A stretch of 64,000 nucleotides of DNA from an uncultured Nitrososphaerota archaeon (lineage in GTDB: Archaea > Thermoproteota > Methanomethylicia > Culexarchaeales > Culexmicrobiaceae): contig CAYWZQ010000003.1 in NCBI GenBank assembly GCA_964462875.1, forward strand, positions 64,189 through 128,188, written 5' to 3'. The notes below the pieces were generated by a model. That model saw only the letters and a list, made by a program, of their open reading frames with translations, was not told the DNA's origin and ran no database searches. The number at the start of each line of letters is the position of its first letter. Position 1 is the first letter of the stretch. A program made the position numbers and the translations under genes. This document shows positions 5,764 through 60,705 of this stretch, in pieces.

Positions 5764-6190
5764 TTAACCACTTCTCTTAGCGCTTGGTCTAAGAACACCC
5801 TCTGAATCCTTGATGTGCCTCCATAAACCTCGTTTAGCATGAACTATAACTATACCAAGCTCCTCTATCAATGCATCAGATATCGTCGGTTCATCTAATC
5901 CAGACTTCACAAGCACATATGAATCTGCTTCACTCAAAACATTCCCTTCCTCACTCAACAATTGAACCCTAACCTTCCTCGGAGCGAGGTAACCTATACT
6001 TTCAGATGTAAGCTCCTCCACAATAACAGTTCTCAACCCCTCTAAAGGCCATAAACTTAGCTTTTAAGCTATACTTGGCGGAAGCATTATCACCGGAACT
6101 TCTGTTTCAGCACCAGCATTAACTAATACAGTACACTTCAACACTAGCACCATGTTCACCAGCAATTCTAACCTTAACCCTAACAACCAT
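5764..6190 (-). pseudogene. decayed paralog of the 4261..4620 retropepsin-like gene (one frameshift plus an in-frame TAA)
   Basis: Minus-strand translation gives 'MVVRVKVRIAGEHGASVEVYCIS*'. After a frame change it gives 'VNAGAETEVPVIMLPPSIA*', and then the listed ORF 'LRTVIVEEL...GIVIVHAKRGLWRH'. These pieces align block by block with 'RIPVRLKHGDFEVRVNALLNTGFETDEPVVVLPLNIA...GIIIDLKHMKWW' of the intact copy. Confidence 0.5.
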
Positions 6191-6434
6191 GCTCCTCTAA
6201 CTCCAAAAACTTCTTGAAAAATTCCTTACGAATCCTAAACCTCTTAAACCTCAACTTAATATCAGTACTAATCTTAAGCTTCCCTCTAATCAGCTTCTCA
6301 TATTCCTCCTCAGTCAAACAAAGAATCTTCATCCAATACCACCAAACTACCATAATACAATGTTACAAAGATAACTCTTAAAAGTATAGTGTCATCACTA
6401 CTTCAAATACTTTAGCAAGAGGAGGGAATTGGAT

Positions 6435-6605
6435 ATGGATAATGCAATACAGTATTCCGTGGCTTTATCGATGAAAGTAAAAGCCATAGTTTCCTTTGAT
6501 AGAGATTTTGATAATCTTGAAATATCTCGAAAGGAATTAAAAGACATTATAAATTCTGACATTACATGTTTTAATTTCATGGAGCTACCTAACTTCCTCT
6601 CTTAA
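6435..6605 (+). pseudogene. PIN-domain (VapC-like) C-terminal remnant
   Basis: A 56-aa ORF 'MDNAIQYSVALSMKVKAIVSFDRDFDNLEI...' matches the C-terminal strand and helix of VapC PIN domains (..A.a...ga.lvT.D.DF..). No N-terminal PIN part is present upstream in any frame. It overlaps the 3' end of the permease gene on the opposite strand. Confidence 0.35.
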
Positions 6606-8397: not shown

Positions 8398-9918
8398 CTA
8401 TCTCCTCCCAATTCTCCTAAATACTATGAAGACTATAATTAGAGCGATAATGGCAGTGGCAATTCCAATATAACCCCATTCAGTGGGTTTGGTGACTGTG
8501 ACTCTAATTTCCCTAGACTTAGATGAAACCTGATCTGAAATAGCCTTCACATCAATGAAGTAGTCTCCAGCTGCAACAAGATCACTGACCTTTAGAGTAA
8601 TTTTGAAGGCAACTTCACTTCCAGAACTCAAAACTTTAACTTTACTAGGTTTAACTTCAACTTCCCAATCAATGGATGGAACATCAACTACAACTTCAAC
8701 GTTAGTGACATCCAGTGTACCAGTATTTTTAACTGATACAGTGAGCTCAGTGCTACTGCCAGAAGTAACTCTAATATTTAGTACTGGTAATTCTGGGAAT
8801 GATATTTGCAGTCCATAGGTTCCAATAACCCTAATCATTAAGTTAATGGAATCGCGGATCAATCCATCTTGACTAATAGCTTCAATTTCAAAGTTATAGG
8901 TGCCATTAACAATGAGAGGTGAAGGCGTGACTTCAACAATGACATTGGATGTAGAGCCAGCTGGAACAAGCAATCCATAAACATATTTACCGGAAACCCT
9001 GAAATTAACAGTCCAGCCACTAGGAACAGTAGTTGCATTTAAGTAAACAAGCTCATCAAATACCCCAGCATTCTTAATAATTAGGGTGAAGTATGCTGTT
9101 CTACCAGATTCAATAGATACTGCTGGATAATCCACGCTTAAAATAAGCCTCCTATTGACAACCTTTGGTGGAGTAACTTCAATTAGCAATTCAATCCAAT
9201 CACAAACACTACTAGAATAAATAGTGAAATTCAATATGTATAGGCCAGCTTCAGCACTTGAAGGTACATCAATAACCACTCTAACAGTGCATTTAGCTCC
9301 ATCTTTCAAGTATAGTAGGAATACTTCATCAGAGCCAACATAAAATCTCGCATTCCAATTCTCAGGTAAATTTGGAATAGACAAATTAAAGATATTTGAA
9401 GTACCCCTATAAGATACATCAACATCAAAAGATACGGTTCTACCTGCCTCAACAACCTTAGCAGGAAGCATACAGTAAACACTAACCTCCTCTTTAACTC
9501 CCCTAACTACTACCTTTAAATGCAAAGTAGTTTCCCAAGGATAATAGGCATAGAAGCAAACAAAATTAAATTCATAAACTCCCGGAGCAACACTAGATGG
9601 AACATATAGGTCAAGTCTAACAGTTACCCTACTATTATTAAGCAATCTCAATTCACTAACTTCTAAACCATTAAAAACAATTCTCCAACCCCAATCACTC
9701 GGCAAACCATCAACCCTAAAACCAACATTCAAAAAACTCTTGAAACCAATATAGCTAACATCAATTGAATAAGATGCAATATCATTTACTTCACAAACCC
9801 TACTAGAAGTCCAACACCACAAATCAACATTAACAACACCTACACTCGAAACAATACCAAGTGACTTAAACTCAAGCATCAAAACTAAGATGAAAATCAG
9901 TGAAATACACTTCCTCAA
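8398..9918 (-). CDS. cell-surface protein with repeated beta-sandwich (CARDB/NPCBM-associated-like) domains, signal peptide and C-terminal TM anchor
   Basis: 506 aa. It has an N-terminal hydrophobic signal 'MRKCISLIFILVLMLEF' and many N-x-S/T sequons. The C-terminus 'WGYIGIATAIIALIIVFIVFRRIGRR' is a TM helix followed by a basic tail. It is first in an operon with the ABC-2 exporter. Confidence 0.5.
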   Translation of the reverse strand: MRKCISLIFILVLMLEFKSLGIVSSVGVVNVDLWCWTSSRVCEVNDIASYSIDVSYIGFKSFLNVGFRVDGLPSDWGWRIVFNGLEVSELRLLNNSRVTVRLDLYVPSSVAPGVYEFNFVCFYAYYPWETTLHLKVVVRGVKEEVSVYCMLPAKVVEAGRTVSFDVDVSYRGTSNIFNLSIPNLPENWNARFYVGSDEVFLLYLKDGAKCTVRVVIDVPSSAEAGLYILNFTIYSSSVCDWIELLIEVTPPKVVNRRLILSVDYPAVSIESGRTAYFTLIIKNAGVFDELVYLNATTVPSGWTVNFRVSGKYVYGLLVPAGSTSNVIVEVTPSPLIVNGTYNFEIEAISQDGLIRDSINLMIRVIGTYGLQISFPELPVLNIRVTSGSSTELTVSVKNTGTLDVTNVEVVVDVPSIDWEVEVKPSKVKVLSSGSEVAFKITLKVSDLVAAGDYFIDVKAISDQVSSKSREIRVTVTKPTEWGYIGIATAIIALIIVFIVFRRIGRR

Positions 9919-9933
9919 TACTTCCCCTCCAAC

Positions 9934-11013
9934 CTACAATTTCCTCCTCAAAACAATAAAGTATAATCCAGCAATTAAAGCAACAACAAAAATCAGCAAG
10001 ATAAAACCTAAAATATTCGCAGATAAACTTGGAAACCTAAATCCCCTCTCAACAACCCTAAACTTAACCCTAATACCATCAATAACCTTACCGGGAATGT
10101 AGTATGGTGGATTTTCCATATTTCTCTCATAGAACCTATTAGTAATAATGTATGATGTCAATACTCCCTCACTCTTGCCTCTGCCAATATTCCATGGCAA
10201 ACCTGAAAAATAAATATCCAGGAACTCGTAGTCAATGAAACCTCCTAGCTGAAACTCTATCCTTATTACTGAGCATGGTGAATTGCTATTAGCTTTAAAT
10301 GGCCTAGTTAGATTTAATAGGTCAAATAGATCGAGAACATAAGTATTGCCGGGCTTGAACTTAAATACGCCCCTAAACGTCCTGAAAATATTGTATTCAA
10401 ATGTTAATGCACCAGATTTTCTATCACGCTTAATAGTCATCGAGAAGTATGCTCCTCCAAGAATAAACTTTCTTGTTATAGCCGTTGCAAATCCCTCACT
10501 AGGCCTACACTTCATAAATAGGTCAATAGCCTCATCATAACTAACATCCTTCAAAGTAAATAAGGAAATTACAAAACTATATCTATATCCACTTCTAGGC
10601 ATAACTCCTGAATAGGATCTCTTATCCTCAAGTACTGCTTCTGAATTAAAATACCACCTAGCTATTTTATCAGCATAACTTTTAGCGCGATGCTCAGCCT
10701 CTTCACCTGAAATTCTCAAAGTATCATGACTAATAACTAAACTAACTGGCTTATTAACATTAAAACAGAGAGTTATGTACTTGAGCTCCAAATCATTAAT
10801 TATACCTAACTCATAAATGTCTACAAAGGGCTTCTCAAGCTTTCCCATAAATTGTATTGAAACATCACCTTCAGCACTAACAACAATGTTGATCCACTCA
10901 AATGGAAAACCAATATATATCTCATCATAATTCATAAAGCCAAAACTTACTGGTACTGTAAATATTATCATTAAAAGCAATCCATTTAGGATAAATAAAT
11001 GATTTTTCATCAA
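9934..11013 (-). CDS. membrane-anchored extracellular protein, paralog A (unknown family)
   Basis: 359 aa with an N-terminal signal/anchor 'LFILNGLLLMIIFTVPVSF' and a C-terminal TM 'ILGFILLIFVVALIAGLYFIVLRRKL'. It shares clear collinear blocks with 14759..15838 (e.g. FKFKPGNTYVLDLFDLLNLT / FNFKPGRSYVLDIFKLLNHT; IRVKFRVVERGFRFPS / MVIKFKVIERGIKFSP). Confidence 0.45.
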   Translation of the reverse strand: MMKNHLFILNGLLLMIIFTVPVSFGFMNYDEIYIGFPFEWINIVVSAEGDVSIQFMGKLEKPFVDIYELGIINDLELKYITLCFNVNKPVSLVISHDTLRISGEEAEHRAKSYADKIARWYFNSEAVLEDKRSYSGVMPRSGYRYSFVISLFTLKDVSYDEAIDLFMKCRPSEGFATAITRKFILGGAYFSMTIKRDRKSGALTFEYNIFRTFRGVFKFKPGNTYVLDLFDLLNLTRPFKANSNSPCSVIRIEFQLGGFIDYEFLDIYFSGLPWNIGRGKSEGVLTSYIITNRFYERNMENPPYYIPGKVIDGIRVKFRVVERGFRFPSLSANILGFILLIFVVALIAGLYFIVLRRKL

Positions 11014-11059
11014 TACCTATAGATAGAAAAACTTATATATATATATTTCGAAAATTTAT

Positions 11060-11500
11060 TTGATGTCGAAAATAGATAAAAGTTTCATAATATTTGTAAT
11101 TTTAGGGATAAACTCTGTTATATCGCTGGTTCTTGCCAAGAGTACAATTGAACCAGCTAATACCATAGATATTCATGGATTTTTAACGTATATAGGTGAC
11201 TACGAAGATCATTATCTCGGAGGTCCAGCATGCCTAGTAATAGTGAATTTTGATCTAATATATCCTGAACCACGAGAAGGTGTTTATCTTTTAGTTCAGG
11301 GCCTGACCTTTGATAGGCAAGTAGTTGTTGATCAAGACTTAATTTCACCTAGCTCGTGGGTTTATCAAGTAATACTAGAATCTAGCGACCATCCTGACAA
11401 CCTTGCAATGTGGTATGTAAGAATAGAATACTATTGGTGGTCTGGCGAGGAACCAGTACCTGAAGTAGAGTACTTTGGCTATATCGAGACAACTCCATGA
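11060..11500 (+). CDS. small secreted protein (signal peptide), unknown function
   Basis: 146 aa with an N-terminal hydrophobic segment 'FIIFVILGINSVISLVLA'. It is Trp/Tyr-rich and acidic. Confidence 0.4.
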   Translation: MMSKIDKSFIIFVILGINSVISLVLAKSTIEPANTIDIHGFLTYIGDYEDHYLGGPACLVIVNFDLIYPEPREGVYLLVQGLTFDRQVVVDQDLISPSSWVYQVILESSDHPDNLAMWYVRIEYYWWSGEEPVPEVEYFGYIETTP

Positions 11501-13938
11501 TTTCCTTTTCTTTATTTTTGCTATTTTATGTTGGAATAAAGCTTAAATTCAGTTTTCTAAATTTATATTTTGTGAAGACTTGTAAGCTACTTGTTTTAGC
11601 TTTTTTGTTGATGTTGGTTTGTTTTTATACATTTGGTTTTGGAATGGTTTTTGGTGTGGATGGTAGGGTTTTGGTTGTTGTTTCGAGTGATGATTGTTTT
11701 GATCTTGTTTTGTCTGGTTTTCTATGTGCTGTTGCTTCTTTTGCTACTAAGGGTGGTGGTGTTGGTTTATTTGTTCCGTGGAGTGAGGTTTATCTTATTG
11801 TGGTTCCATTTGGGGTTTTTGATGAAGCTTACGTGGGGAGGATTTTGGAGTTAAAGCCATTTATGGCCTTTATTGTTGGAAATTATTCAAGTGTTCCTAG
11901 AGGTTATGGGGATGCTTTGAGGGCTGTGGGTGTTGATGTGAGGCGTGTTGGTGGGGGTAATTGTCAGGAGAGGAGTATTCTGCTATATGAATTTTATGTT
12001 GAAGCTTTATGCATGAGAGCTCCATTTGGGGAATTCGAGTTTCCTCCTAGAGCTGTTCCAGTTATTGTTCCTGCTGGGAGGCCATGTATACCTTGGGGTT
12101 CATTTCCGATATTGTTTGTTAATATAACTGATGAGCTCTTATCCTTCATGAGGAATTATGGTGCCCTTGTCCATTGTAGTCTTAGGGATCAATTTAGTGG
12201 TTTCAATGTTGCCTTTACTGATGTTGATTTAATTGAGGTTTTTAGGGGTGTTCGTGGTTTCAGAATTTTCTCTTCAATTGAAGTTCTCAATGAATTGAGG
12301 AGGGCATATATTCCTGAAGTATTGCCCAAATTTGTTGTTCATGATTTCACTAATCTATCTAAGGTGCATTCAATTTCGAGGTTTAGATCTTGTGCTGGAC
12401 ATGAATTTCCAGATTCATTTGAGAGGGGTTCGAGTTTAAAGCACTACTATGAGCCATATGATGAGTATAAGGGTACTTTGAATAGGGTTGAGGTATTTTC
12501 ACCTGTTAACGGCACTATAATGGCGATTGTTCCTGAGGGTAAAGTGCTCCCTACAGGTGAGCCTCGTGGCATGCGTATTCACATATTGGTTGATGATTAT
12601 CCGGGCTTCATGATCGAGCTATTCCATGTAAATGTTTTTGAGAATGTAACTGTTGGAATGAAGGTTAGGGCTGGGGATATGCTTGGATATTTTGATATGA
12701 GGGATGCCAATGACTTTGATATTGCAGTTTCATACATTTCACCCGTAGGAATCAAGTATTACTCATATTTCGACGTGATGAGTGATGAAGTATTCATCGA
12801 GTATAGGAGGAGGGGTATAGTTTCTAGAGATCAAATGAAGTTTCCTTATGAGGAGAGGATTAAGTGTCCATGTAACTTCACGTATTTCCATCCCGAAGAT
12901 TGGGTTAACTTATCTCCAATAGAGCAGCCAGTGGCTCTAGTAACTTTGAATTCACTTGTACCTAGAATTTTGAGGCAGTATGAGGAAGTGGAGCTTAAAC
13001 TTGTGCTCACTAATTTAGGTGAAGTAACTGCTAGGAACGTTGAGGTTGAAGTGATTAGTGCTGAGGATATTGAAATTGATTCAGAGACCATCCATGTAGG
13101 AGCTTTAGATGGAGGGCGCTCCCTAAAGTTTAAATTGAAGATTAAGCCCTTAACTGCTGGATCCAAGCTCATTACATTCAAGCTATCCTATCTAGATGAG
13201 GAGGGTAGATGGCAAGTTGAAAACTACTATGCTTGGATTAAAGTTTTAGAAGTTCGCGGGGAACTTGAAGCTATACCACCTAAATTGAAGCTTAAGGTCG
13301 GCCGTGAACATAGGTTGACAATTACCATTAAGAATGCTGGGCAAATTGATGCACCCTTCACTTTAGTAGTTGAAGGAGTTAATGTTAAGGTATCTCAACC
13401 CTCCTTCACAGTTAATACTTCAGCTGGAGGTGAAGTTAATATAACACTCACAGTTGCACCATTAAGTGAAGGATCTGGGGAGTTAAAGCTCAAATTGCTA
13501 TTCCAAAATATTGTTCAAAGCACAGCGAAAATTCTTATTGAGGCCTGGAAAGTAAGGGGTGAGCTACATGTTCTCGAGGTGCCAGGCGAATTAATGGTTG
13601 GAGAAGAAGCTTCCATTAAAATTTCAATTGTAAATAGTGGTGGAATAAGTGCAACATATACCATGAAGGTGAGCAGCGATGATTTTGAAGTAAATCCCCA
13701 AAAACTTACCGTAACCATTCCAGCTCAGTCAAGTAAAGATGTCACATTAAAGGTGAAAGCATTAAGGGAAGGTAGGGGTACGGTGAAATTCGAGTTATAT
13801 GAAGACAATAATTTGCTGGATACAAAGGAAGTCAATATAGAAATTAAATCTAAGAAAATTGATTTCACAATACTACTAATACCAATAATTGCCATAGTGG
13901 CAGCAATTGCATTCATATTAGTTATCAAGAAAAGATGA
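11497..13938 (+). CDS. large cell-surface protein with C-terminal beta-sandwich repeats, TM anchor and a possible degenerate M23/LytM-like barrel (start uncertain, likely near 11613-11650)
   Basis: The C-terminal third has repeated domains ('NVEVEVISAEDIEID...KFKLKIKPLTAGSKLITF', 'KLKVGREHRLTITIKNAG', 'TVKFELYED') and ends in the TM 'ILLIPIIAIVAAIAFILVIKKR'. Mid-region 'NGTIMAIVPEG...MRIHILVDDYPGFMIELFHVNVFENVTVGMKVRAGDMLGYFD' aligns with the M23 peptidase core but lacks HxxxD/HxH zinc ligands. The 5' ~1.1 kb has an extreme G+T coding strand. Confidence 0.5.
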   Translation: MISFSLFLLFYVGIKLKFSFLNLYFVKTCKLLVLAFLLMLVCFYTFGFGMVFGVDGRVLVVVSSDDCFDLVLSGFLCAVASFATKGGGVGLFVPWSEVYLIVVPFGVFDEAYVGRILELKPFMAFIVGNYSSVPRGYGDALRAVGVDVRRVGGGNCQERSILLYEFYVEALCMRAPFGEFEFPPRAVPVIVPAGRPCIPWGSFPILFVNITDELLSFMRNYGALVHCSLRDQFSGFNVAFTDVDLIEVFRGVRGFRIFSSIEVLNELRRAYIPEVLPKFVVHDFTNLSKVHSISRFRSCAGHEFPDSFERGSSLKHYYEPYDEYKGTLNRVEVFSPVNGTIMAIVPEGKVLPTGEPRGMRIHILVDDYPGFMIELFHVNVFENVTVGMKVRAGDMLGYFDMRDANDFDIAVSYISPVGIKYYSYFDVMSDEVFIEYRRRGIVSRDQMKFPYEERIKCPCNFTYFHPEDWVNLSPIEQPVALVTLNSLVPRILRQYEEVELKLVLTNLGEVTARNVEVEVISAEDIEIDSETIHVGALDGGRSLKFKLKIKPLTAGSKLITFKLSYLDEEGRWQVENYYAWIKVLEVRGELEAIPPKLKLKVGREHRLTITIKNAGQIDAPFTLVVEGVNVKVSQPSFTVNTSAGGEVNITLTVAPLSEGSGELKLKLLFQNIVQSTAKILIEAWKVRGELHVLEVPGELMVGEEASIKISIVNSGGISATYTMKVSSDDFEVNPQKLTVTIPAQSSKDVTLKVKALREGRGTVKFELYEDNNLLDTKEVNIEIKSKKIDFTILLIPIIAIVAAIAFILVIKKR

Positions 13939-14758: not shown

Positions 14759-15838
14759 ATGATAAGACGACATAAATCCTTAAGAATGATCTATCTAACC
14801 TGTTTAACAGCAACATACATGCTATGCTTTTTAGCTAGTCATTTTTTATGCTCTATATCCATGGTAAAATGCAAATCAATATTTAATACCTATTTATATT
14901 CATATGAAATATGGGTAGGTGAACAATTATGGCTTACGGTTTATCCTAATGGGAGTATTAGCGTTGGTATTTCTACATATACTGATGAACCTTTTGTTGA
15001 CTTGTATGATCTTAAAGATGGCTTTCTTGGTTTAACTATTAGGTGTATAGTTGGTAGTTCAGTGAGGATGCGTGTGGCATATGATTTAACTAGGATTAGT
15101 TTAGAGGAGGCGAGGTTGAAGGCAAATGAAATAGTAGCTAGGTGTAGTAAAGTGCTGGGTGTTTTCTTTGAACTCGTTGATGAGGAGAGAAAATCATTTA
15201 TAAGCCATATAAGTGGTAAGAAATATGATTGGATTAACTTCTACTATAGAGCTTCTAAAATCAATTTTGATAAGTTCATTGATGCTTTCTTAAGCATTAA
15301 ACCTAATGAGGGATTTGGCGTCTTAATTAAAAGAGCTAATATAGGTTTGAAAACTGAGCTCATAATTAGGGTTCATCATTTTAGGCAGACGGGTGAAATT
15401 AAAACTGAAGTTGTTCTCTATAAGGTTATTTCTTCATACTTCAATTTTAAGCCTGGCAGAAGCTATGTTTTAGATATTTTTAAGTTGCTTAATCATACTG
15501 GAGGAATTATTTCTCATAGCTCATTAGACACTTTATTTTGGATTTACTTTAATTATGGCTACTATATGGATTATGAGTTTATTGATATTAAAATTCCAAT
15601 ATATTATAATGTCTACACTAGTACTAAAGCTAAAGAGTATACCATAACTAATGAGCCCCACTATCCACCTAGAGGTACTCCTATTGATGAGATGGTTATT
15701 AAGTTTAAGGTTATTGAAAGAGGTATTAAGTTTTCGCCAACCCTTATCAATATGGTTATTGGCATTATAATTGTAGTTACAATTTTCTGCATCGCCATAT
15801 ATATGGTGAAGTACTTTAAATTGAGGAGAGTTGCTTAA
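14759..15838 (+). CDS. membrane-anchored extracellular protein, paralog B of 9934..11013
   Basis: 359 aa. Same architecture and conserved blocks as paralog A, with C-terminal TM 'MVIGIIIVVTIFCIAIYMVKYF'. Confidence 0.45.
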   Translation: MIRRHKSLRMIYLTCLTATYMLCFLASHFLCSISMVKCKSIFNTYLYSYEIWVGEQLWLTVYPNGSISVGISTYTDEPFVDLYDLKDGFLGLTIRCIVGSSVRMRVAYDLTRISLEEARLKANEIVARCSKVLGVFFELVDEERKSFISHISGKKYDWINFYYRASKINFDKFIDAFLSIKPNEGFGVLIKRANIGLKTELIIRVHHFRQTGEIKTEVVLYKVISSYFNFKPGRSYVLDIFKLLNHTGGIISHSSLDTLFWIYFNYGYYMDYEFIDIKIPIYYNVYTSTKAKEYTITNEPHYPPRGTPIDEMVIKFKVIERGIKFSPTLINMVIGIIIVVTIFCIAIYMVKYFKLRRVA

Positions 15839-16601: not shown

Positions 16602-18473
16602 ATGATCCGTGAAGTAATACTAGAGAACTTCATGTCTTATGAGTATGGTAGAATACCTCTAAAGCCGGGATTAAACTTAATTTGTGGTCCTAATGGTGCT
16701 GGTAAATCTTCAATTCTACTTGGAATATCAGTTGCTCTTGGCCAGTCATATACTGAGCGTGGTAGGAGGTTGAGTGACCTAATTAGGTGGGGGGAGAAAA
16801 TTTCTAGAGTAACTATTGTACTTGATAATTCTCCTAGAGGTAGGAGGAGGCCATACCCTAAAATACGCTCTGATACTATTAGAATTTCAAGGTATCTTCG
16901 TAAGGATGGCTCATACTGGTTTGAAGTTAATGGCAAAACTAAGACGAAAAGTGAAGTTCAGGAAATACTGAGAGCTTTCAATATTAATCCAAATAACATG
17001 CTAATTATAATGCATCAAAATATGGTTGAAGAATTTGCAGTTGTACCTCCTAAGGAGAAGTTGAAGTTTTTTGAAGATGCAATTGGATTGACACATTATA
17101 GAGATAGAATTAAGAAGGTAAAGGAGAAGTTGAATAAAATTGTTAAAGAGGAAGCTGATGTTCAGAAGTTACTTGAAAAAGCGAAGTCTATGCTTGACTA
17201 CTGGCGAGGTGAATATGAAAAGTTTAAGTTGAAGGTGAAACTTGAAGATGAGCTTGAAAAATTGAAGTGTGAACTTGCATGGTCGAAAGTTGTGAAGAAG
17301 GAGGATGCAATTAGGAGCATTAAAGTCAAAATTGATAGATTAAATAGTAAGATCGAATCTTTGAGGAGGAAGATTGATGAGGAAAGTGCTAGGTTAGAGA
17401 AGTTGAGAAGTAAGTTGAGAAGTCTCAGTAGTGAGCGTGAAAAGTTAATTTTAAAGTTAATTGAAGCTGCGAAAAATGTTGGTAGAATGGAAGTTTTAAG
17501 TGAGCTTGTAGGTAGGCTTGGTCAAGAATATGTTTCAAAGTTATTTGGAGAACTAGTAGTTGAAGACAGTTATTTGAGCAGTATACTTGACTCTTTAGCT
17601 GAAGTTCAAAGTAAGCTGTCATCTACGAACTATTCAATAGATCAAACTTATGGTAAAATTATTGATTGTAGAGTTAAACTTGAATTATTGAAATTTAAGC
17701 TGGACTTGGCTAGGAGTGAGTTGAGGGAGTTGAAGAAGAACTTGAATAGGTATATGGCTGAACTTAGTGAGTTGAAGAGTGAAGCTGAGAAGTTGGGTTC
17801 AAAACCTGAGGTTATTAGGGATCCATCAGAGCTAGTTGATAGAATTAGAATTGTTGAGTTGAGACTGGAGCATATTGGTGATGTATCTAAGGATGTTGAG
17901 CAAATGTACTCAACCTACAACAAGACTTTCAGCGAGCTTTCAGAGAGAATTAAGGTTCTTGAGAGCAATAGGGCTATGTTACTTCGTGAACTTGATGAGA
18001 GAATTAGAGCTTGGAGGAGAGTTCTCAGTAGTGTTTTAGATAGAGTTAATAGTTTTTATAGTGAGATTTTGAGCAAGATTGGTGCTATCGGTTATGTTAG
18101 GTTAGTTAATGCTGATGATGTTGATGAAGCTGGATTAGAAATTTTAGTTGGATTTAGAGGTAACACACCAGTTGTTCTTGATGGATACTCTCAGAGTGGT
18201 GGTGAGCGTACAATTGCTATAATGGCATTTCTGCTAGCAGTTCAGAAGTTTATTAAGTCTCCATTTAGAGCTGTCGATGAGTTTGATATTCACATGGACC
18301 CTAGAAATAGGGAGTTAATTGGAAAACTACTAATTTCATCATTTAGCGGTAGTGAGAATGTTCAGTTCATAGCCATTACTCCAAGTCCAATAATACCTGA
18401 AGTTGAGAGTAGTGTAAACGTAATTTTCGTTCAAAATGTCGGTGGTAAATCTATGGTTAGGAGTGTAGCTTAA
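16602..18473 (+). CDS. short SMC-like ABC ATPase (RecF/RecN/SMC head with about 300-aa coiled coil, no canonical hinge)
   Basis: 623 aa. Walker A 'LICGPNGAGKSSILLGISVALG' at residues 27-48 and a Q-loop '...IMHQNMVEEF'. A long heptad-rich middle follows ('LKVKLEDELEKLKCELAWSK...LRSKLRSLSSEREKLILKLIEAAKN'). The C-terminal signature 'LDGYSQSGGERTIAIMAFLLAV' is followed by Walker B/D-loop 'AVDEFDIHMD'. Confidence 0.75.
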   Translation: MIREVILENFMSYEYGRIPLKPGLNLICGPNGAGKSSILLGISVALGQSYTERGRRLSDLIRWGEKISRVTIVLDNSPRGRRRPYPKIRSDTIRISRYLRKDGSYWFEVNGKTKTKSEVQEILRAFNINPNNMLIIMHQNMVEEFAVVPPKEKLKFFEDAIGLTHYRDRIKKVKEKLNKIVKEEADVQKLLEKAKSMLDYWRGEYEKFKLKVKLEDELEKLKCELAWSKVVKKEDAIRSIKVKIDRLNSKIESLRRKIDEESARLEKLRSKLRSLSSEREKLILKLIEAAKNVGRMEVLSELVGRLGQEYVSKLFGELVVEDSYLSSILDSLAEVQSKLSSTNYSIDQTYGKIIDCRVKLELLKFKLDLARSELRELKKNLNRYMAELSELKSEAEKLGSKPEVIRDPSELVDRIRIVELRLEHIGDVSKDVEQMYSTYNKTFSELSERIKVLESNRAMLLRELDERIRAWRRVLSSVLDRVNSFYSEILSKIGAIGYVRLVNADDVDEAGLEILVGFRGNTPVVLDGYSQSGGERTIAIMAFLLAVQKFIKSPFRAVDEFDIHMDPRNRELIGKLLISSFSGSENVQFIAITPSPIIPEVESSVNVIFVQNVGGKSMVRSVA

Positions 18474-35044: not shown

Positions 35045-35845
35045 TCAAGCCCTCTTCCTAAGTTCACTTAAAACTTCCCTGCCAAACTTTATTAGTATGT
35101 CTAGATCTGAGCCTAGGGCTATGAATTTGAATCCCATTTTAATGTAGTTTAGTGCTGTTTTGAGGTCTGGGGAAGCATATATGCCAACTGGAACTCCCTT
35201 ATCAGTGCACTTATCCAATATTAGTTTAATTGCTTCTTGAACTTCTGGATGTGATGGCTCACCTATATGTCCAAGTGAAGTTGACAGGTCCCATGGACCT
35301 ATGAATGCTGCATCAATCCCCTTTACTTCTAGTATTTCATCTAGATTTTCAAGTGCCTTTTTAGTTTCAATTTGAATTATTAGCGAAATTTCACCTTGCC
35401 TAACGAATTCCAAGTATTCTTTCAGCTTTAAGCCATACATTGAAGCTCTCCTAGGACCATAACCCCTAATCCCCTCGGGTGGATACTTTACCGATTTAAC
35501 TGCGAGCTCAGCCTCTTCCTTGCTATTAACCCATGGAACAAGTATTCCATGAGCTCCTACATCTAATGCCAACTTTATCAGCACGGGATCGTTCCATGCA
35601 ACTCTAATTATGGGTGTTGACTTCTCAGCATCAACTACTTGGATCAAGTCTTGGACATCCCTAATGGTGAGTGGTGCATGCTCCATGTCAAAGAGGAGCC
35701 AATCAAATCCAATTATAGATGCAACTTCAACTAAATCCGTTGAGTCGATTGTAATCCATAGTCCGAAGGCAACTTCACCTTGCTCAAGCATGTGCTTGAA
35801 CTTATTCCTCATACAAATCACCACACCATTAAAGTAGATTGGCAA
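35045..35845 (-). CDS. HpcH/HpaI aldolase / citrate-lyase beta-like family protein
   Basis: 'LIIQIETKKALENLDEILEVKGIDAAFIGPWDLSTSLG' is the characteristic active-site region of HpcH/HpaI aldolases. Confidence 0.7.
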   Translation of the reverse strand: MPIYFNGVVICMRNKFKHMLEQGEVAFGLWITIDSTDLVEVASIIGFDWLLFDMEHAPLTIRDVQDLIQVVDAEKSTPIIRVAWNDPVLIKLALDVGAHGILVPWVNSKEEAELAVKSVKYPPEGIRGYGPRRASMYGLKLKEYLEFVRQGEISLIIQIETKKALENLDEILEVKGIDAAFIGPWDLSTSLGHIGEPSHPEVQEAIKLILDKCTDKGVPVGIYASPDLKTALNYIKMGFKFIALGSDLDILIKFGREVLSELRKRA

Positions 35846-35926
35846 TATTTAATCAGCTTTTCTAAGTTAAAGGTGAAATGATCCTGATTAATGATGAAGA
35901 CTCCAATTAATTGCCTTTACCTCTAT

Positions 35927-36760
35927 TCAGCCATGGATATGGCCTGTATAGCCTTTCAATAGCCTCCTTATCTTCTCCTCCGGATACTCATATGGCTTCA
36001 ATTTCCCACTGAAATAGTCTTCGCATACCTTCAAGTCTAGTAAGCCATGTCCGCATAGTAGGAACAGTATAGTTTTCTCTTCATTACTTCTCTTGCACCT
36101 TATTGCCTCATCTATGACTGCTCTTATTGCATGGGCTGGTTCTGGAACTGGAATTATTCCTTCAGTCTTAGCGAATAGTGTTGCAGTCTTAAATACTTCA
36201 ACTTGATTATATGCCCTTGTCTCCACTGCTCCATGCCTATATATGAGGCTTAGGGTGGGTGCGATTCCATGATACCTCAGTCCATCTTCATGTATTGATG
36301 GCGGGATGAATGAGTGCCCTAAGGTATGCATTTTAAGCATTGGTGTGAGTCTCGGGTATCTCCATGATCATACGTATAGTATCCCTTAGTGATTGATGGG
36401 CATGCAGTTGACTTTACCGCTATGAGCCGTATCGCTACCTTTTTGCTCTTGATTTCCTCATAGTAGAATGGCCATATTAAGCCTGAAAAGCTATTTCCCT
36501 CACCTATGCAACCTATTATTATGTCCGGTTTTCATCAAGCAATTCGAATTGACTTATTGCTTCCAATCCAATCACAGTTTGATGTATAGGACATGATTTA
36601 ATACGCTGCCGAGCGCGTACTTTGTATTCTCATTCTTGACTGCATCTTCTAATGCCTCACTAATAGCTATTCCCAAATCCCCCGGATGATTTGGATTTTC
36701 TTCTAGAAATTTTCTTTCACATTCCGTTCTATAACTTGGGCTTCAGAGTTAGGAAGGATG
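35927..36760 (-). pseudogene. trpB: tryptophan synthase beta-like (TrpB2-type) pseudogene: C-terminal ~280 codons with at least three frameshifts and in-frame stops; N-terminal half absent
   Basis: Minus-strand translations give '[20 protein letters not shown]' (frame c), then '[15 protein letters not shown]' (frame b), then 'KPDIIIGCIGEGNSFSGLIW...YYTYDHGDT' (frame a). After one more shift comes the listed ORF 'RLTPMLKMHTLGHSFIPP...EGIIPVPEPAHAIRA...LFLLCGHGL'. These are all collinear with TrpB2. The fold-type-II GGGSN loop is mutated to GEGNS. Two TGA codons lie directly upstream of the KPDIII block. Confidence 0.6.
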
Positions 36761-36837
36761 GAAAAATTGTTAGCGGTAACATTGAAATACCATTCACTTA
36801 GATTGGACGTGAAGTTGGTGTTGATAGAAGAACAGTA

Positions 36838-37131
36838 ATGAATACCGTGAAGACCATACTCTCATGTTCAGAGCTTAAAAGAATTTTCTCGAAATTAAGG
36901 CAGGTATATTTGCTTCTGAAGGCTGCACCTGAGTTTGACTTAAACGTGATAGTATTTATCCCAAAGGATGCACTATTGAAAGTAACTAAGCTAATTGCTG
37001 AAAAGAACATCTCCACAATTCAGGCCTATGCTGAGGATCTTGAAATGAGTCTCGAACACAAGTTTATCATAGTTATTAAGGGAGATATACCTTTAGAGTT
37101 ATTTAAAGAAAGAATTGAGAAATTTACCTGA
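36838..37131 (+). CDS. hypothetical protein (occupies the position of the missing trpB 5' half, opposite strand)
   Basis: 97-aa ORF 'MNTVKTILSCSELKRIF...KFIIVIKGDIPLELFKERIEKFT' with protein-like composition and no recognised motif. Confidence 0.3.
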   Translation: MNTVKTILSCSELKRIFSKLRQVYLLLKAAPEFDLNVIVFIPKDALLKVTKLIAEKNISTIQAYAEDLEMSLEHKFIIVIKGDIPLELFKERIEKFT

Positions 37132-37230
37132 AACAAAAAGCATTGCCATATATTGACTTAATAGTCTCTTGAGTGCTGACCCCAATATGTGTCAATGTAG
37201 AGTTATATTTTAATTCGCTTAAATTTAAGT

Positions 37231-38385
37231 GTGTCAGTGCTAATTGTTGGTGGTGGTTTTTCAGGGCTTCTCTTGGCTAAGCTTATTGGTGATGGGGTAC
37301 TTGTTTTTGAGGAAGATGGGCATGTGGGTTTGCCGGAGCACTGTGCTGGTATTGTGAGTCCTAAGACTTTGAAGCTAATTGGTGCACCTAAAAGTTTGGT
37401 TGAAGCTGAATTTGATGAATTGAGGATTTGCTTTGGAAGTAGCTTTCTTAGCTTTAGGGGTGATCCAATAGTAGTCAAGATTGATAGGGTAATGCTTGAA
37501 GAGTACTTGTATAGTGAGGCTCTAAGTAGTGGGGCGGAAATTAGGCTTGGAGCTAGGGTTTCCGGAGTTGATGTTGATGGTAGAGTTCTAGTTGGGAGTG
37601 AAGTTTTCAGGGGCAATGTTGTAGTGCTTGCTGAGGGTGCTAAGAGATGCTTTTCTAGAGCTCTTGGTTTAATTGATGAATGTGATGCTTATCATGGAAT
37701 TCAAGTTAGATTGAGGGCTTCAAGCTCAATTAATAGGATCGAGGTTTATGTTATGGAGATGCTCGGCGACTTCTTCTCATGGCTAGTTCCAATAGTTGAG
37801 AGCAGGCAAGTTATAGTTGGCTTAGCTTCTCGCTCAGCTAGGAACTTGAGGTATAAGCTTAATGCATTAGTGAGCCTGCTTGAAAGACAGGGTAAGCTTA
37901 GAGTTCATGGCGAAATAAAGTGGTTTGGAGGAACCATATTAACTGGCCCGGTTGGCAGAGTTGTTAATGGTAGGGTTGTTGGTATAGGTGATGATGTTCA
38001 AATGAATAAGCCATTAACTGGTGGAGGTTTATATCCATCGGCAATTGCAGCTAGGATATTGGCTGAAGAAGTTAATTCTGCGTTAAATGGTGATTTCAAT
38101 TTTGGGGAAGCCATAGCTAATTATACTGTTAAAGTCAAGCCACTAATTAAACTATTAAGAACGGCTTATGCAGCTACCAAGATTTTGAGATTTTCAAACT
38201 ACTTCATCCCTAAAACTATTGCTATGGGTGCTTCAAAACTCAATTTAAGCAGTAAACTGCTAGCTGAAATCGACTATGATGAGCACTATAATAGCCTGCT
38301 TAAATCTATAATTTCAAATCCATTTAGGCTCGCAGAATTCACCGCATCAATGCTGATCGGTATGGCTAGCTACTTAGCCTCCTAA
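37231..38385 (+). CDS. FAD-dependent oxidoreductase, geranylgeranyl reductase family
   Basis: N-terminal dinucleotide fold 'VLIVGGGFSGLLLAKL...FEEDGHVGLPEHCAGIVS', about 380 aa as for archaeal GGR-like enzymes. Confidence 0.65.
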   Translation: MSVLIVGGGFSGLLLAKLIGDGVLVFEEDGHVGLPEHCAGIVSPKTLKLIGAPKSLVEAEFDELRICFGSSFLSFRGDPIVVKIDRVMLEEYLYSEALSSGAEIRLGARVSGVDVDGRVLVGSEVFRGNVVVLAEGAKRCFSRALGLIDECDAYHGIQVRLRASSSINRIEVYVMEMLGDFFSWLVPIVESRQVIVGLASRSARNLRYKLNALVSLLERQGKLRVHGEIKWFGGTILTGPVGRVVNGRVVGIGDDVQMNKPLTGGGLYPSAIAARILAEEVNSALNGDFNFGEAIANYTVKVKPLIKLLRTAYAATKILRFSNYFIPKTIAMGASKLNLSSKLLAEIDYDEHYNSLLKSIISNPFRLAEFTASMLIGMASYLAS

Positions 38386-44955: not shown

Positions 44956-45088
44956 ATTGAATTAAAGAAAGCAGTTTTAAAGTTACAATATAATGGAAAA
45001 TAACTATGCTCACAGGCGGGAACTGTTTAGTTTCCAAAATTTAAATGTTTTCATGATAAGTATTAGCAAGAAGATGTACTGTATTGAT

Positions 45089-46002
45089 TAGAAGTGGAAA
45101 ATTCAGATCATAGGTGCTCTCACCTTAGCATCAATCATAGCTTCCATAATAATTGCTTCAACACTAATCCTTGGAGTACCTATAGAAGACGCTTTCTTAG
45201 CACAGCAAATTATGATGAAGGGCAAGTTAACTGGATTTATAAAAATTAGGATAACACCCATAGTGAATGGAAGTGAATATTATGGCCCTTTACTGATAGC
45301 AATACACAATTTTACAGGTGAACGTAAATCAGGATTATCAGAAAGATTAATTCTCGATAAATCTGCAATATTTCCGCGGCAATTCATATTCAAAGTAAAT
45401 AGAATACCAATTTCCGTCATTAAAGGTAAGATTATTTATAAGCCACATGAATTCTTTATTCAAAAACCGACAGTGGATGGTATGAAGCTGGCTCTTCACC
45501 AGCCGATTCTGTTGGTTATGACTATGTGGAAGTTTCTAATGGTGATGCAAGATGCGTTAAAGGTTGGATATGCTTTAAGTGTGAGAGATGGTATATATCT
45601 AATTTTCAAGGAGTTGACGGAGAGCATTATGATTATGAATATTATATCATGACACCAATAGAAATACGTGGTATAGAACCTGAGAATCGAGTAACTTGCA
45701 ATGAATGTGGAAGCTGGCCACCACCAACTTATGCTACTGAGGAAACAACTTCTAAAAGAACAGTTTATTTTGGATCTGGAGACAACTATGGATGGACTGT
45801 AAAATCAGTAACATTATCATTTACCTTCTCTATAGGGCCAGTAACTAGTACTTTTTCAATAACGTTATATAGGAAAACTTCTGATTCTCCTCCATTCATA
45901 GAAATTAATGTCAATAACTGGCAAGCAAGCAAATATTATTGGTGGTATGAAGATGATGATAAGAATAAGTATGTAGTGTATTTAACATGGAGTCAATCTT
46001 AA
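45089..46002 (+). pseudogene. membrane-anchored Cys-containing protein, apparently frameshifted and without canonical start
   Basis: Two overlapping track ORFs (45212..45652 and 45526..46002). The first frame extends upstream as the TM segment 'KWKIQIIGALTLASIIASIIIASTLILGV' with no ATG/GTG/TTG before it. The second frame extends upstream to about 45451 ('ILYSKTDSGWYEASSPADSVGYDYVEV...') and carries CxxC...CxxC 'CVKGWICFKC...CNEC'. The frame switch is near 45440-45470. Confidence 0.3.
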
Positions 46003-52338: not shown

Positions 52339-53222
52339 AAAGCATAATTATAGCTGTAACTGGCGGTAAAGGTGGAGCAGGCAAATCAACCATAGCAGTG
52401 AATTTAGCAGTAGAGCTGGCTAATGAAATGAGAGTGCTGTTAATTGATGCAGATGTCGATAATCCAAACGACTCTACTCTACTTGGAGTGAAAACTATTA
52501 AGGTGAGCGATATAACGTCATTTGCACCTGAAATTGACCAATTTAAATGCATTAGATGTGGTTCATGTGTTAAAGTATGCCCTGAACATGCATTAGTAAT
52601 GAGGTCGGGGAACCCACCAATAGTTTTCGTAGATAGGTGCTCGGGATGTAGGGCATGCTACATAGTATGTGAAGCTGGTGCTATTAGTGATAGAGGAAAA
52701 ATTTTAGGTGAAATATTTGAGGCTGAAACTGAGGGCTTGAAGTTAATTGGAGCTAAAATTAGAATTGGTGAAGCTAGATCACCAATTGTCGTGAAGCAGT
52801 TAATGAACTACGTAGATGGTATTATTGATGGCTTTGAAATTGCGATTATTGATACTGCACCGGGAATACAGAACACGGTTATTCAAGCACTTATGAAGTC
52901 CAAGTATGCATTAGTTGTAACTGAGCCAACTCCATTAGGCCTATACACCTTAAAGCTTATGACCAGAGCACTTGAAAAACTAGTTTTACCGAGAAGCCTT
53001 ATAATCAATAGGTCAAACATTCCAAGCTCAATTAAAAGTGAAGTAGAAAGCTACGCTAAGAATTTCGGTTTTGAAGAGATATTTGAAGTACCATATGACG
53101 AGAGTTTTATTGCAGCATCTATTGAAGGTAGACCAGCAGTCAAGGCTTATCCATTAGCGGCTGGGTCTAAGGCGATAAGGGGAATAGCAGAATTCATTAA
53201 GCAATTTTTTAATGAAGTTTAA
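52335..53222 (+). CDS. MinD/Mrp-superfamily P-loop ATPase with inserted 2x[4Fe-4S] ferredoxin domain (paralog)
   Basis: 'VTGGKGGAGKSTIAVNLA', 'CIRCGSCVKVCPEHAL' and 'CSGCRACYIVCEAGAI', with a 4-nt overlap to the upstream paralog. Confidence 0.75.
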   Translation: MKSIIIAVTGGKGGAGKSTIAVNLAVELANEMRVLLIDADVDNPNDSTLLGVKTIKVSDITSFAPEIDQFKCIRCGSCVKVCPEHALVMRSGNPPIVFVDRCSGCRACYIVCEAGAISDRGKILGEIFEAETEGLKLIGAKIRIGEARSPIVVKQLMNYVDGIIDGFEIAIIDTAPGIQNTVIQALMKSKYALVVTEPTPLGLYTLKLMTRALEKLVLPRSLIINRSNIPSSIKSEVESYAKNFGFEEIFEVPYDESFIAASIEGRPAVKAYPLAAGSKAIRGIAEFIKQFFNEV

Positions 53223-53261
53223 TAAACTAGCTATACGTGAATATTTGTTACGCTTTTCCCA

Positions 53262-53522
53262 TTATCCCCCAGTTGCTGGTGGTATCACTGTCACTTCATC
53301 ATCATCATCATTAACGGGTGTATTTGGACTTGCAGTTCTATTGTTTAATAGAACAATGATGGGTCCCTCCCCCCTCAAATCAATTTTTCTAAGTATTGGC
53401 CACTTATCCATCATTAATTCCACCAATTCACCTAAAGTACATTGCCGATTAACTTCGAGAACTGAAGCGTTAACTCCAATCATATCCCTGAGATATGATA
53501 GAAATCTTACTCTAACCCTCAT
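53262..53522 (-). CDS. MoaD/ThiS-family ubiquitin-like sulfur-carrier protein (C-terminal GG)
   Basis: 86 aa ending '...EVTVIPPATGG'. Beta-grasp pattern 'MRVRVRFLSYLRD...VLLNNR'. Confidence 0.6.
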   Translation of the reverse strand: MRVRVRFLSYLRDMIGVNASVLEVNRQCTLGELVELMMDKWPILRKIDLRGEGPIIVLLNNRTASPNTPVNDDDDEVTVIPPATGG

Positions 53523-53700
53523 CAGTAATCAAAGCAGTTAGAGCATCTAAATATAAATTTTGACCGCATGTATTTAGCTCCGATGATTAAAGCCTCAAGC
53601 ACTCTAAATCATGAAAGAACAGTTAAACACTGATTAATGTGGTACTTAATTTTCGCAAATCTTATATTTAATCTTGACTAACACTTTAATGGGGATATAA

Positions 53701-58929: not shown

Positions 58930-59406
58930 AGCTTAAGTGATACGCTTGACCAAACTGAATTCATTGTTGCGGATGAACCAGTATCAATGTTAGATGCATC
59001 AATCAGAACTGAAGTACTCAAGTTAATGCTCAATTTAATAAGAAAAACTAACTGCTCAGTCCTATACATAACCCACGATTTAGCACTAGCCAGGTATATA
59101 TGTGATAGAATAGCTGTAATGTATTTGGGTAAAATTGTTGAAGTTGGAGATGCAGAAGAAGTAATTAGAGATCCTAAACATCCATACACCAAAGCACTTT
59201 TAGCAGCAATACCAATCCCAGATCCAACTGCTAGAAAAACTAAAATACTAATTAGGGGCGATGTCCCAAGCGCAATAAATCCGCCAAGCGGATGTCGGCT
59301 TCATCCAAGATGCCCTTATGCAATTAAAAAGTGCGGTGAATTAGGGCCTGAAGTTGAACCTAAAAGACTTGTCGCATGTCACCTAGTTGAAAGGGGTAAA
59401 CTATAA
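58930..59406 (+). pseudogene. 5'-truncated oligopeptide/dipeptide ABC ATPase (OppD/OppF-like) gene fragment
   Basis: The ORF begins inside the Walker B region ('..EFIVADEPVSMLDASIRTEVLKLM...YITHDLALARYICDRIAVMYLGKIVE') and has the OppF C-terminal extension 'CRLHPRCPYAIKKCGE'. There is no Walker A upstream. The D-aminoacylase gene start is directly adjacent. Start is approximate. Confidence 0.5.
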
Positions 59407-59640: not shown

Positions 59641-60465
59641 GGCAGTATCAATATATGGTAAAAGGATTTATATAAATTTTAGGATATCAAAATATTTACT
59701 TCAAAATTATTATCTTATACTCCATTTACTCTTAAATCCAACAATTAAAACTTTAAAAGTCAATTAAGGAATTTCAGAGGCTCTGAATTGGAAATAATCC
59801 AGTAGAGCACTAATTTATGAGAGTTATTTCAAGATAGTTTTTGCACTATGTGACTTATTACTGAGGAATATCATTAATACAATATTATTTAACTTAAATA
59901 CATAAATAATTATGAGACAATTAGATTTGAAATTAATGCGTCTAATCAAAGTTCCATAATGGTAGTTTATTAAGCAATTCATTAAAGTTACTTCCTTATC
60001 GATGCTTATATTTAAATATCTTTAGTACGGAATTTTGGTACATAAAAACTGTACTTGCCAAAGTATATGCTGAATGCAAAATGGGTTTAAAGACTTTAGA
60101 AGTGGGTAAATAGCAATGAAAACTAAGCTTGACTGTTATAAAATGGTGAAGTAAAAGTGTTTTTAGCTTTCTGCCATTAAATGAGCGGGAAGGCAGTGTT
60201 TTCGGTCATTGAGGTCCTCATTCATCATCTGTCAGGAAGGGAGACTTCAATCATCCCATGGCTCAGATTAGGATGTGCTCCACATCACTTTCGGACCACT
60301 AGCGGCTCTTCATTGCCAGCAGAATTTAATTAGAGTGTTAAAGTTAAATTTTTTATGTTTTATGTATATGCACTTCATTATCAAGCATGCAAGTTTAAGC
60401 TTTGCATGTTAATGCAAAAGTTTAAAAGCAAATTTATTTAATGCTAGTCCGAGCTGGGGGAATGT
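59641..60465. other. 825-bp ORF-free AT-rich intergenic region with divergent promoters, a 7-1-7 palindrome (TTCAGAG-G-CTCTGAA near 59773) and a ~150-nt GC-rich island (about 60180-60330)
   Basis: No ORF of 60 aa or more on either strand. The palindrome was read directly. The GC-rich island 'ggcagtgttttcggtcattgaggtcctcattcatcatctgtcaggaagggagac...ctttcggaccactagcggctc' contrasts with the flanking sequence, which is more than 75% AT. Confidence 0.3.
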
Positions 60466-60705
60466 TTGTTCATGGCGCTTGCATATGTGCTAATTACTGC
60501 GGAAACTGGTACTGAAGGGGAGTTATTGAAGGAGCTCATGAAGATTGAGGGCGTTGAGGAGGCATATATTGTCTATGGAGTCTATGATATTATAGTTAAG
60601 GTTAAGGCTGAAAGCATAAAGAAGTTGAAGGAAATAATTTCGTGGAGAATTAGGAGGTTACCTAAAGTTAGGTCTACATTAACGATGATGGTTGCCGAGT
60701 TTTAA
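60466..60705 (+). CDS. stand-alone RAM-domain protein (Lrp/AsnC C-terminal ligand-binding domain)
   Basis: 'VLITAETGTEGELLKELMKIEGVEEAYIVYGVYDIIVKVKAESIKKL' is the AsnC_trans_reg fold, and the protein lacks an HTH. Confidence 0.55.
   Translation: MFMALAYVLITAETGTEGELLKELMKIEGVEEAYIVYGVYDIIVKVKAESIKKLKEIISWRIRRLPKVRSTLTMMVAEF

Follow-up and report, generated by a model that had tools for sequence, protein, structure and literature searches.

Probable remains of a two-gene trpB2 and TrpY-family regulator module in an archaeal contig

What has become of a gene whose coding sequence is scattered over several reading frames and whose first half is absent, and what stands in the place of the missing half? 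Both questions are raised by a locus within a 64-kb stretch of DNA from an uncultured archaeon of hot sediment (the window; contig CAYWZQ010000003.1, positions 64,189 to 128,188), to which all coordinates below refer. A first-pass annotation, made from the sequence alone, had described there a decayed minus-strand gene of the trpB2 type (tryptophan synthase beta), with its 5' half replaced by an unrelated plus-strand open reading frame (ORF). The analysis presented here makes it very probable that region 35907-37156 holds the non-functional remains of a two-gene module, composed of trpB2 and a gene encoding a TrpY-family regulator (Table 1).

The trpB2 remnant and its lesions

The identity of the minus-strand sequence was established by profile and translated searches. 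Four single-nucleotide insertions were sufficient to repair it to 279 codons free of stops, and the hand-repaired translation matched the NCBIfam profile NF009057 (PRK12391, TrpB-like pyridoxal 5'-phosphate (PLP) enzyme) over positions 184-440 of 441, with an E value of 7.5e-110 and 367.5 bits (cut-off 366). Pfam PALP was matched as well. The TIGR01415 score (351 bits) is below the cut-off of 519 bits because half of the TrpB2 protein is gone. When the window was searched by tblastn with an intact Bathyarchaeota TrpB2 (from locus L003) as the query, the remnant was recovered as collinear pieces in successive frames, with a joint E value of 1.3e-92. The complete reading path consists of five segments, in frames 1, 0, 2, 1 and 0 of the three frames of the strand. 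The closest solved structures are the Sulfolobus TrpB2 chains 6hul_B, 4qys_B and 6hte_B. Such a match to the TrpB2 family is judged to be far beyond chance.

No further TrpB-like sequence was found in the 64-kb window with the same query. The N-terminal 183 codons, including the PLP-lysine motif GSHKPNT (columns 108-114 of alignment A1, i.e. upstream of the first residue of the remnant), were detected by tblastn neither at the locus nor elsewhere in the window. The remnant begins with the SPS motif (36742-36734), which corresponds to residue 184 of the L003 TrpB2. While an uninterrupted ORF of approximately 450-470 codons is expected of TrpB2, the longest ORF found here has 137 aa.

Three of the four frameshifts (1-3) are changes of frame between consecutive tblastn pieces, and frameshift 4 was recognized from the repair and from an alignment of the C-terminus with six intact homologues. 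This alignment revealed that the annotated C-terminal end (EEKIRRLLKGYTGHIHG and a stop) is itself frameshifted, and that the conserved tail (consensus IKKLxELYPW) lies one frame over. The ancestral TrpB2 C-terminus EEKIKEAIERLYRPYPWLNRGKGN and the original TAA are both concealed by frameshift 4.

The substitutions are a sign of relaxed constraint. An alignment with the 115 intact homologues of the protein search contains 93 strictly invariant columns within the span of the remnant, and ten of them are changed (G9E, S22D, Y72K, G82E, S84N, E111K, P150S, A153E, G154D and A200V); G82E and S84N sit in the PLP phosphate loop, at columns invariant in the 115 homologues. In a leave-one-out comparison the intact homologues departed from such columns 0.17 times on average and three times at most, versus ten times in the remnant.

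Judged by its sequence, the remnant is to be regarded as a pseudogene derived from the TrpB2 family and not as a working member of it. Catalysis (conversion of indole and serine or O-phosphoserine to tryptophan) is not expected, and no activity is predicted without the PLP lysine.

The central claim of the first-pass annotation, i.e. a decayed trpB2, is thus fully supported: the catalytic half is lost, the frame is broken four times and ten of 93 invariant residues are replaced. All of the peptide blocks that it cited were found on the minus strand in a three-frame translation of 35850-37250, the GEGNS reading in place of the GGGSN loop was seen again, one base restored after GDT did recreate GDTARLTPMLKMHTLGH, and the absence of the 5' half was borne out by tblastn. 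Its other details needed correction. The limits had been set at 36760 and 35927; trpB2 homology stops at 36742, and at the other end the remnant runs 20 nt further, to the TAA. Multiple frameshifts are present, as described, but their number is four single-base deletions and not three, since the one at 35968-35969 had been overlooked. The gene had been followed through four reading frames, of which a strand has only three. Finally, two in-frame TGA codons had been counted as lesions, and no stop is left after the four repairs: the TGA at 36574-36572 terminates a shifted frame by chance, and that at 36745-36743 is located outside the trpB2-derived sequence.

The facing regulator gene and the junction

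The plus-strand ORF of 97 aa (36838-37131), which had been considered unrelated, is the C-terminal part of a TrpY-family regulator: it has no Pfam match, and alone it matches NF053754 (TrpY_fam, NCBIfam) with an E value of 1.8e-14. If this frame is followed upstream past a TAG codon, the TrpY homology continues back to 36739. The extended and repaired remnant reached an E value of 5.4e-31 and 107.8 bits, which is under the curated cut-off of 180 because the sequence is truncated and decayed. Its pieces were placed by tblastn in two frames, and it shares 54% identity with the L003 regulator (alignment A2). The glutamine that L003 carries at the position of the TAG would fit a CAG to TAG change. 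The sequence comparison argues for a homologue of the TrpY family, yet not for a full member.

Neither domain of the regulator was found intact. There is no complete helix-turn-helix (HTH) domain in an open frame, as the first ~25 residues of the regulator are deleted and the TAG falls inside the HTH. Nor is the C-terminal ACT-like domain whole: the five residues forming the glycine loop at its opening are gone, the conserved AEDP and PEPK read AEDL and LEHK, respectively, and its end is cut off by the 4-nt duplication. The ACT assignment is itself weak (the L003 TrpY-like protein matches Pfam ACT with an E value of 0.0065).

Table 1. Features of the trpB2 and trpY remnants (window coordinates; a caret marks the deletion site in a sequence context).
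Feature	Position	Strand	Remarks
trpB2 pseudogene remnant	35907..36742	-	last 279 codons, residues 184-463 of intact TrpB2; ancestral stop TAA 35909-35907
tblastn piece, TrpB2 residues 184-235	36742-36587	-	
tblastn piece, TrpB2 residues 236-254	36587-36531	-	
tblastn piece, TrpB2 residues 256-314	36528-36355	-	
tblastn piece, TrpB2 residues 316-443	36352-35969	-	
Frameshift 1, 1-nt deletion	36585..36587	-	in GTCCTAT^ACATCAA; codon of the residue that separates NHVL from HQTVIG (X in the repair; intact homologues have L, M, I or T)
Frameshift 2, 1-nt deletion in A-run	36529..36532	-	GATGAAAA^CCGGAC; residue preceding PD
Frameshift 3, 1-nt deletion after GDT	36354..36356	-	GATACC^CGAGAC; repair gives back GDTARLTPMLKMHTLGH
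Frameshift 4, 1-nt deletion in A-run	35968..35969	-	GAGAAGATAA^GGAGGCT; conceals ancestral C-terminus KEAIERLYRPYPWLNRGKGN and stop
PLP phosphate-binding loop GEGNS	36490..36504	-	GGGSS or GGGSN in homologues (alignment A1)
IHEDGLRYHG for invariant IHAGGLRYHG	36284..36289	-	A to E and G to D
Residual 137-aa ORF in trpB2 remnant	35927..36340	-	NCBI RLG58243.1 is the same sequence with a start three residues downstream (134 aa)
Deletion junction	36739..36742	.	trpB2 SPS codons 36742-36734 (-) meet TrpY GF codons 36739-44 (+)
TrpY-family regulator pseudogene remnant	36739..37156	+	NF053754 positions 25-153 of 163; without first ~25 codons; ancestral stop TGA 37154-37156
In-frame TAG in HTH region of trpY remnant	36799..36801	+	variable column, occupied by Gln in the closest homologue (L003)
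Residual 97-aa ORF in trpY remnant	36838..37131	+	NCBI RLG58242.1
15-nt in-frame deletion	36972..36973	+	xxxG(I/V)(I/V/L)A loop at start of ACT-like domain lost (alignment A2, tblastn gap)
4-nt tandem duplication AAAG-AAAG, +1 frameshift	37105..37112	+	one copy removed gives ELRNLPETKSIAIY and stop, like L003 EKLRKIPGTKSITLC and stop

The same two genes are neighbours in other archaea. An intact reference pair is present in L003, where trpB2 (9452-10843, plus strand) faces the regulator gene (8828-9364, minus strand), and the regulator (167-178 aa) passes the TrpY_fam cut-off (206 versus 180 bits, positions 1-163). A TrpY-like gene adjoins trpB2 in ten of the 16 best-matching loci, all of them archaeal (Bathyarchaeia, Promethearchaeota (Asgard), Jordarchaeum and Thermofilaceae). 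The pair is divergent, i.e. head-to-head, in eight loci (L001, L003, L009, L010, L011, L012, L014 and L015), and the regulator lies downstream of trpB2 in two (L002 and L004). The pairing was found in no bacterial trpB2 locus among those compared. An early survey of trpB2 genes did not detect a conserved neighbourhood for them (Merkl 2007, PMC1854888). The head-to-head spacer in related archaea measures ~90-150 bp, or 120 bp in L003 on the assumption that the methionine of MWRK is the first residue of the regulator. The remnants in the window are likewise arranged head-to-head, so that a regulator paired with a tryptophan-pathway gene is found here as well.

The closest intact TrpY-like protein (P0132, 56-57% identical; L093:8001-8504, also in L094 and L095) is encoded divergently not from trpB2 but from a Liv-type operon for an amino-acid ATP-binding cassette (ABC) transporter, comprising Peripla_BP_6, two permeases and two ATPases. 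TrpY-family regulators may, to judge from this arrangement, control uptake systems as well.

It is scarcely credible that unrelated DNA carrying the plus-strand ORF was inserted over the 5' half of trpB2. Such an insertion would account for an ORF standing where the 5' half should be and for its lack of a Pfam match. However, the TrpY family is matched by this ORF both alone and when extended upstream (E values above), a gene of this kind faces trpB2 or lies behind it in the ten related loci, the regulator is 5'-truncated exactly where trpB2 homology stops, and there are no flanking repeats or mobile-element features. The word "replaced", used in the first-pass annotation, is therefore misplaced, since there was no insertion and the regulator is a conserved neighbour of trpB2 in related archaea and itself a pseudogene. 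A repeat search at the site gave short chance matches only and no element termini; no repeat, RNA-family or tRNA feature and no sign of a mobile element was present there, and the whole window is without an Rfam or tRNA match. Under permissive settings, the only Rfam hit at the locus was a sub-threshold chance match (Plastid-ycf3, 36156-36200, 24.9 bits versus a gathering threshold of 55.2). No promoter was found by a sigma-70 scan, whose model is not applicable to archaea, and three terminator-like hairpins were found in the same scan.

The two remnants overlap by 4 nt (GGCT), which may represent microhomology or chance, and there is no filler DNA between them. By the geometry of L003, approximately 744 bp are missing, namely 549 nt of trpB2 together with the spacer and the beginning of trpY. 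A single deletion, and not two events, is the simplest account of the junction, because the remnants abut within 4 nt, in native orientation and with no filler DNA. It is very unlikely that the junction arose from two or more events (separate truncations, or an inversion plus a deletion), or that an already truncated fragment was gained horizontally. The number and order of events are unreadable from a single end state, and no relative in the ancestral state was found, which leaves some room for such histories; the native head-to-head arrangement, kept with the genes abutting and nothing in between, and the lack of mobile-element signs speak against them.

A single deletion would imply the following history. 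Ancestrally, trpB2 (minus strand) and the regulator gene (plus strand) would have stood head-to-head around a shared promoter/operator spacer. One deletion of ~0.74 kb would have taken the first 183 codons of trpB2 (with the PLP lysine), the shared spacer and the first ~25 codons of the regulator gene. As neither gene would then have been expressible or functional, both remnants would have drifted. We infer that the small lesions came after the deletion: trpB2 would have gained its four 1-nt deletions, of which two lie in A-runs, and the ten invariant-site substitutions, including those in the PLP phosphate loop, and trpY a nonsense codon, the 15-nt deletion of the ACT loop and the 4-nt tandem duplication. 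In the literature on the family, TrpB2 is credited with condensing indole with O-phosphoserine or serine to tryptophan, i.e. with indole salvage, and the loss would have been tolerated since this role was no longer needed. It is reasonable to conclude that a TrpB2-specific function became dispensable, and this view is strengthened because the dedicated regulator was lost jointly with the enzyme.

Reproducibility, residual ORFs and genomic surroundings

Could the disruptions be errors of sequencing or assembly? The exact 137-aa ORF was located on six contigs, five of which were retrieved; the assemblies are of "Candidatus Geothermarchaeota" from the Guaymas Basin. Region 35850-37250 (1401 nt) is 100% identical in the five: ENA ERZ27248328 (a 116-kb MEGAHIT-style contig), Logan SRR7051321, ENA ERZ1742239 (a SPAdes-style contig), JGI 3300014911 (a Guaymas Basin hydrothermal sediment metagenome; PMC6478937) and ENA ERZ27227320. 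The window differs from ERZ27248328 at two positions over 20 kb and is therefore a further assembly. The lesions are reproduced in these five other assemblies, and an assembler artefact is ruled out by identical contigs from different assemblers.

An intact trpB2 in the organism, masked by sequencing or assembly errors, can be considered effectively refuted already, and the chance of it is next to nil. Two of the four frameshifts do lie in short A-runs, a context of indel errors on some platforms. Nevertheless, the 1401 nt are the same whichever assembler was used, the missing 183 codons at the 5' end, and the catalytic lysine among them, are beyond any frameshift repair, ten invariant residues are substituted and the adjoining regulator gene is disabled independently. 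Homology, disabling lesions, relaxed constraint and reproducibility in five assemblies, i.e. the marks by which a pseudogene is recognized, were thus all found.

In public databases, the two fragments are carried as ordinary genes (NCBI, MGnify, JGI). RLG58243.1 and RLG58242.1 are labelled "hypothetical protein", and the 97-aa fragment serves as representative of the protein cluster to which it belongs.

That one or both residual ORFs are kept as working small proteins, or that TrpB2 is made by programmed frameshifting, is extremely improbable. Both ORFs start with ATG and were called as genes in every assembly, and stand-alone ligand-binding domains of regulators exist in archaea, with a 79-aa example in the window itself (60466-60705). 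Against this, four of the ten invariant-site changes fall within the 137-aa ORF (P150S, A153E, G154D and A200V), the 97-aa ORF is without the ACT loop, has the AEDL and LEHK changes and ends early by the 4-nt duplication, and the promoter region is deleted; four frameshifts and the lack of the catalytic lysine cannot give an enzyme. A more daring version holds that decay made new small genes, in which new promoters would drive transcription of the 97-aa ACT-like TrpY tail and/or the 137-aa TrpB2 tail, and the products would be kept as ligand-binding or scaffold proteins in their own right. Highly unlikely as this is, it would, if true, allow domain exaptation from a dying regulatory module to be observed.

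Several points weigh against the reading of the locus as a decayed trpB2-trpY pair. Guaymas read sets may be shared, wholly or in part, among the five assemblies, which are no proof of independent populations. Both residual ORFs keep their start codons. No close relative with an intact pair at the same genomic position was found: the highest identity is 69% for an intact TrpB2 and 57% for a TrpY-like protein, and synteny with the window is lacking in both cases. With the repaired TrpB2 as the query, identity reached 69% and no more both in genome contigs and among 5.8 billion proteins, the contexts of the top matches P0002 and P0005 had no synteny with the window, and the neighbouring oxidoreductase, used as a query against metagenome contigs, had no match. 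Because no syntenic intact relative was found, the ancestral arrangement is drawn from distant lineages. With these points taken into account, the decayed two-gene module still stands as very probable.

The remnants are flanked by an HpcH/HpaI aldolase gene (35045-35845, minus strand) and a gene for a flavin adenine dinucleotide (FAD)-oxidoreductase-like protein (37231-38385, plus strand). With the leftover ORFs discounted, 35846-37230 is the longest non-coding stretch of the window, which is ~89% coding. No other trp gene was recognized in the window by precomputed Pfam matches (~26-50 kb), Pfam scans of most other ORFs and tblastn for TrpB, a coverage from which ORFs 9934-11013, 11060-11500, 11497-13938, 16602-18473 and 53212-53541 were left out. 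These include surface-protein-like sequences (9934-13938), an ORF resembling structural maintenance of chromosomes (SMC) proteins by eye (16602-18473) and a 109-aa ORF (53212-53541).

Some other features of the window were recorded. The ORF at 58987-59406 (plus strand) is an orphan C-terminal fragment of an Opp/Dpp-type ABC transporter ATPase, with homology from the Walker B region (ADEPVSMLDASIR) and an oligo_HPY domain (Pfam E 8.7e-20), without the Walker A half and with no transporter partner genes nearby; by its sequence, it is probably a second gene remnant in the window. The 79-aa ORF at 60466-60705 (plus strand) encodes a stand-alone Lrp/AsnC ligand-binding domain (AsnC_trans_reg, E 5.3e-13) without an HTH, and could be either an ordinary single-domain protein or one more truncated regulator. 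It is preceded by the second-longest apparently non-coding gap (59641-60465; 825 nt without an ORF of at least 70 aa and with no Rfam or tRNA match). Two further gaps without long ORFs, of ~550-570 nt (44956-45525 and 6037-6584), gave six-frame translations unremarkable by eye. Two hypothetical membrane-anchored proteins of 359 aa (9934-11013, minus strand, and 14759-15838, plus strand) look like paralogues (FKFKPGNTYVLDLFDLLNLT versus FNFKPGRSYVLDIFKLLNHT) and lie on either side of a group of large surface-protein-like ORFs and an ABC-2 transporter; the protein encoded at 14759-15838 has no Pfam match at an E value of 1e-5 or better.

Comparison with known systems

The event described here is of a known kind, pseudogenization in known families, i.e. 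routine gene loss, and it leaves current understanding unchanged. It offers a fully resolvable example of the death of a gene pair, in which a deletion through a shared divergent promoter would have killed enzyme and regulator together, with small indels and substitutions accumulating afterwards. There are also practical consequences. RLG58242.1 and RLG58243.1 would be better flagged as pseudogene fragments, lest they be counted as novel protein families, and no TrpB2 activity should be credited in metabolic reconstructions of this Geothermarchaeota lineage. The position of trpY beside trpB2 may help to predict the TrpY regulon outside methanogens, which is a modest extra. In a modest further version, the head-to-head trpY-trpB2 pair may be a widespread archaeal tryptophan/indole-responsive unit, whose loss may mark the Geothermarchaeota lineage as dependent on external tryptophan; a literature search found no publication of substance tying Geothermarchaeota to tryptophan metabolism.

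Among known enzymes, the remnant resembles the TrpB2 family (NF009057/TIGR01415), its 279 C-terminal codons being collinear with the family, at an identity to intact archaeal members that reaches 69%. Solved examples of the family are the Sulfolobus solfataricus TrpB2 structures 6HUL_B, 4QYS and 6HTE. The remnant differs from intact TrpB2 in the absence of residues 1-183, the four frameshifts, the GEGNS and IHEDG readings and the ten invariant changes. Three groups of trpB2 have been distinguished (TrpB2_o, TrpB2_i and TrpB2_a), and trpB2 genes outside trp operons are a recognized class (Merkl 2007, PMC1854888); like the trpB2_o and trpB2_a types, the remnant stands outside any trp operon.

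The best comparison for the regulator is the tryptophan-responsive TrpY of Methanothermobacter thermautotrophicus, which, as Karr et al. (2008, J Bacteriol 190:2637) are cited in PMC3729527, was reported to regulate trpB2 and the trp operon. The remnant matches the profile of this family and, like TrpY, is paired divergently with a trp-related gene. A difference lies in the partner: here, as well as in the Bathyarchaeia, Asgard and Thermofilaceae loci, the regulator gene is placed directly beside trpB2, while in M. thermautotrophicus trpY presumably faces the trp operon, with trpB2 located elsewhere.

Partial losses of tryptophan metabolism have a precedent. In Pyrococcus horikoshii, the trp operon was lost and trpB2_o was kept (PMC1854888). 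Both cases are lineage-specific and visible in the genome, but their patterns are opposite, as in the archaeon studied here it is trpB2, together with its regulator, that was lost.

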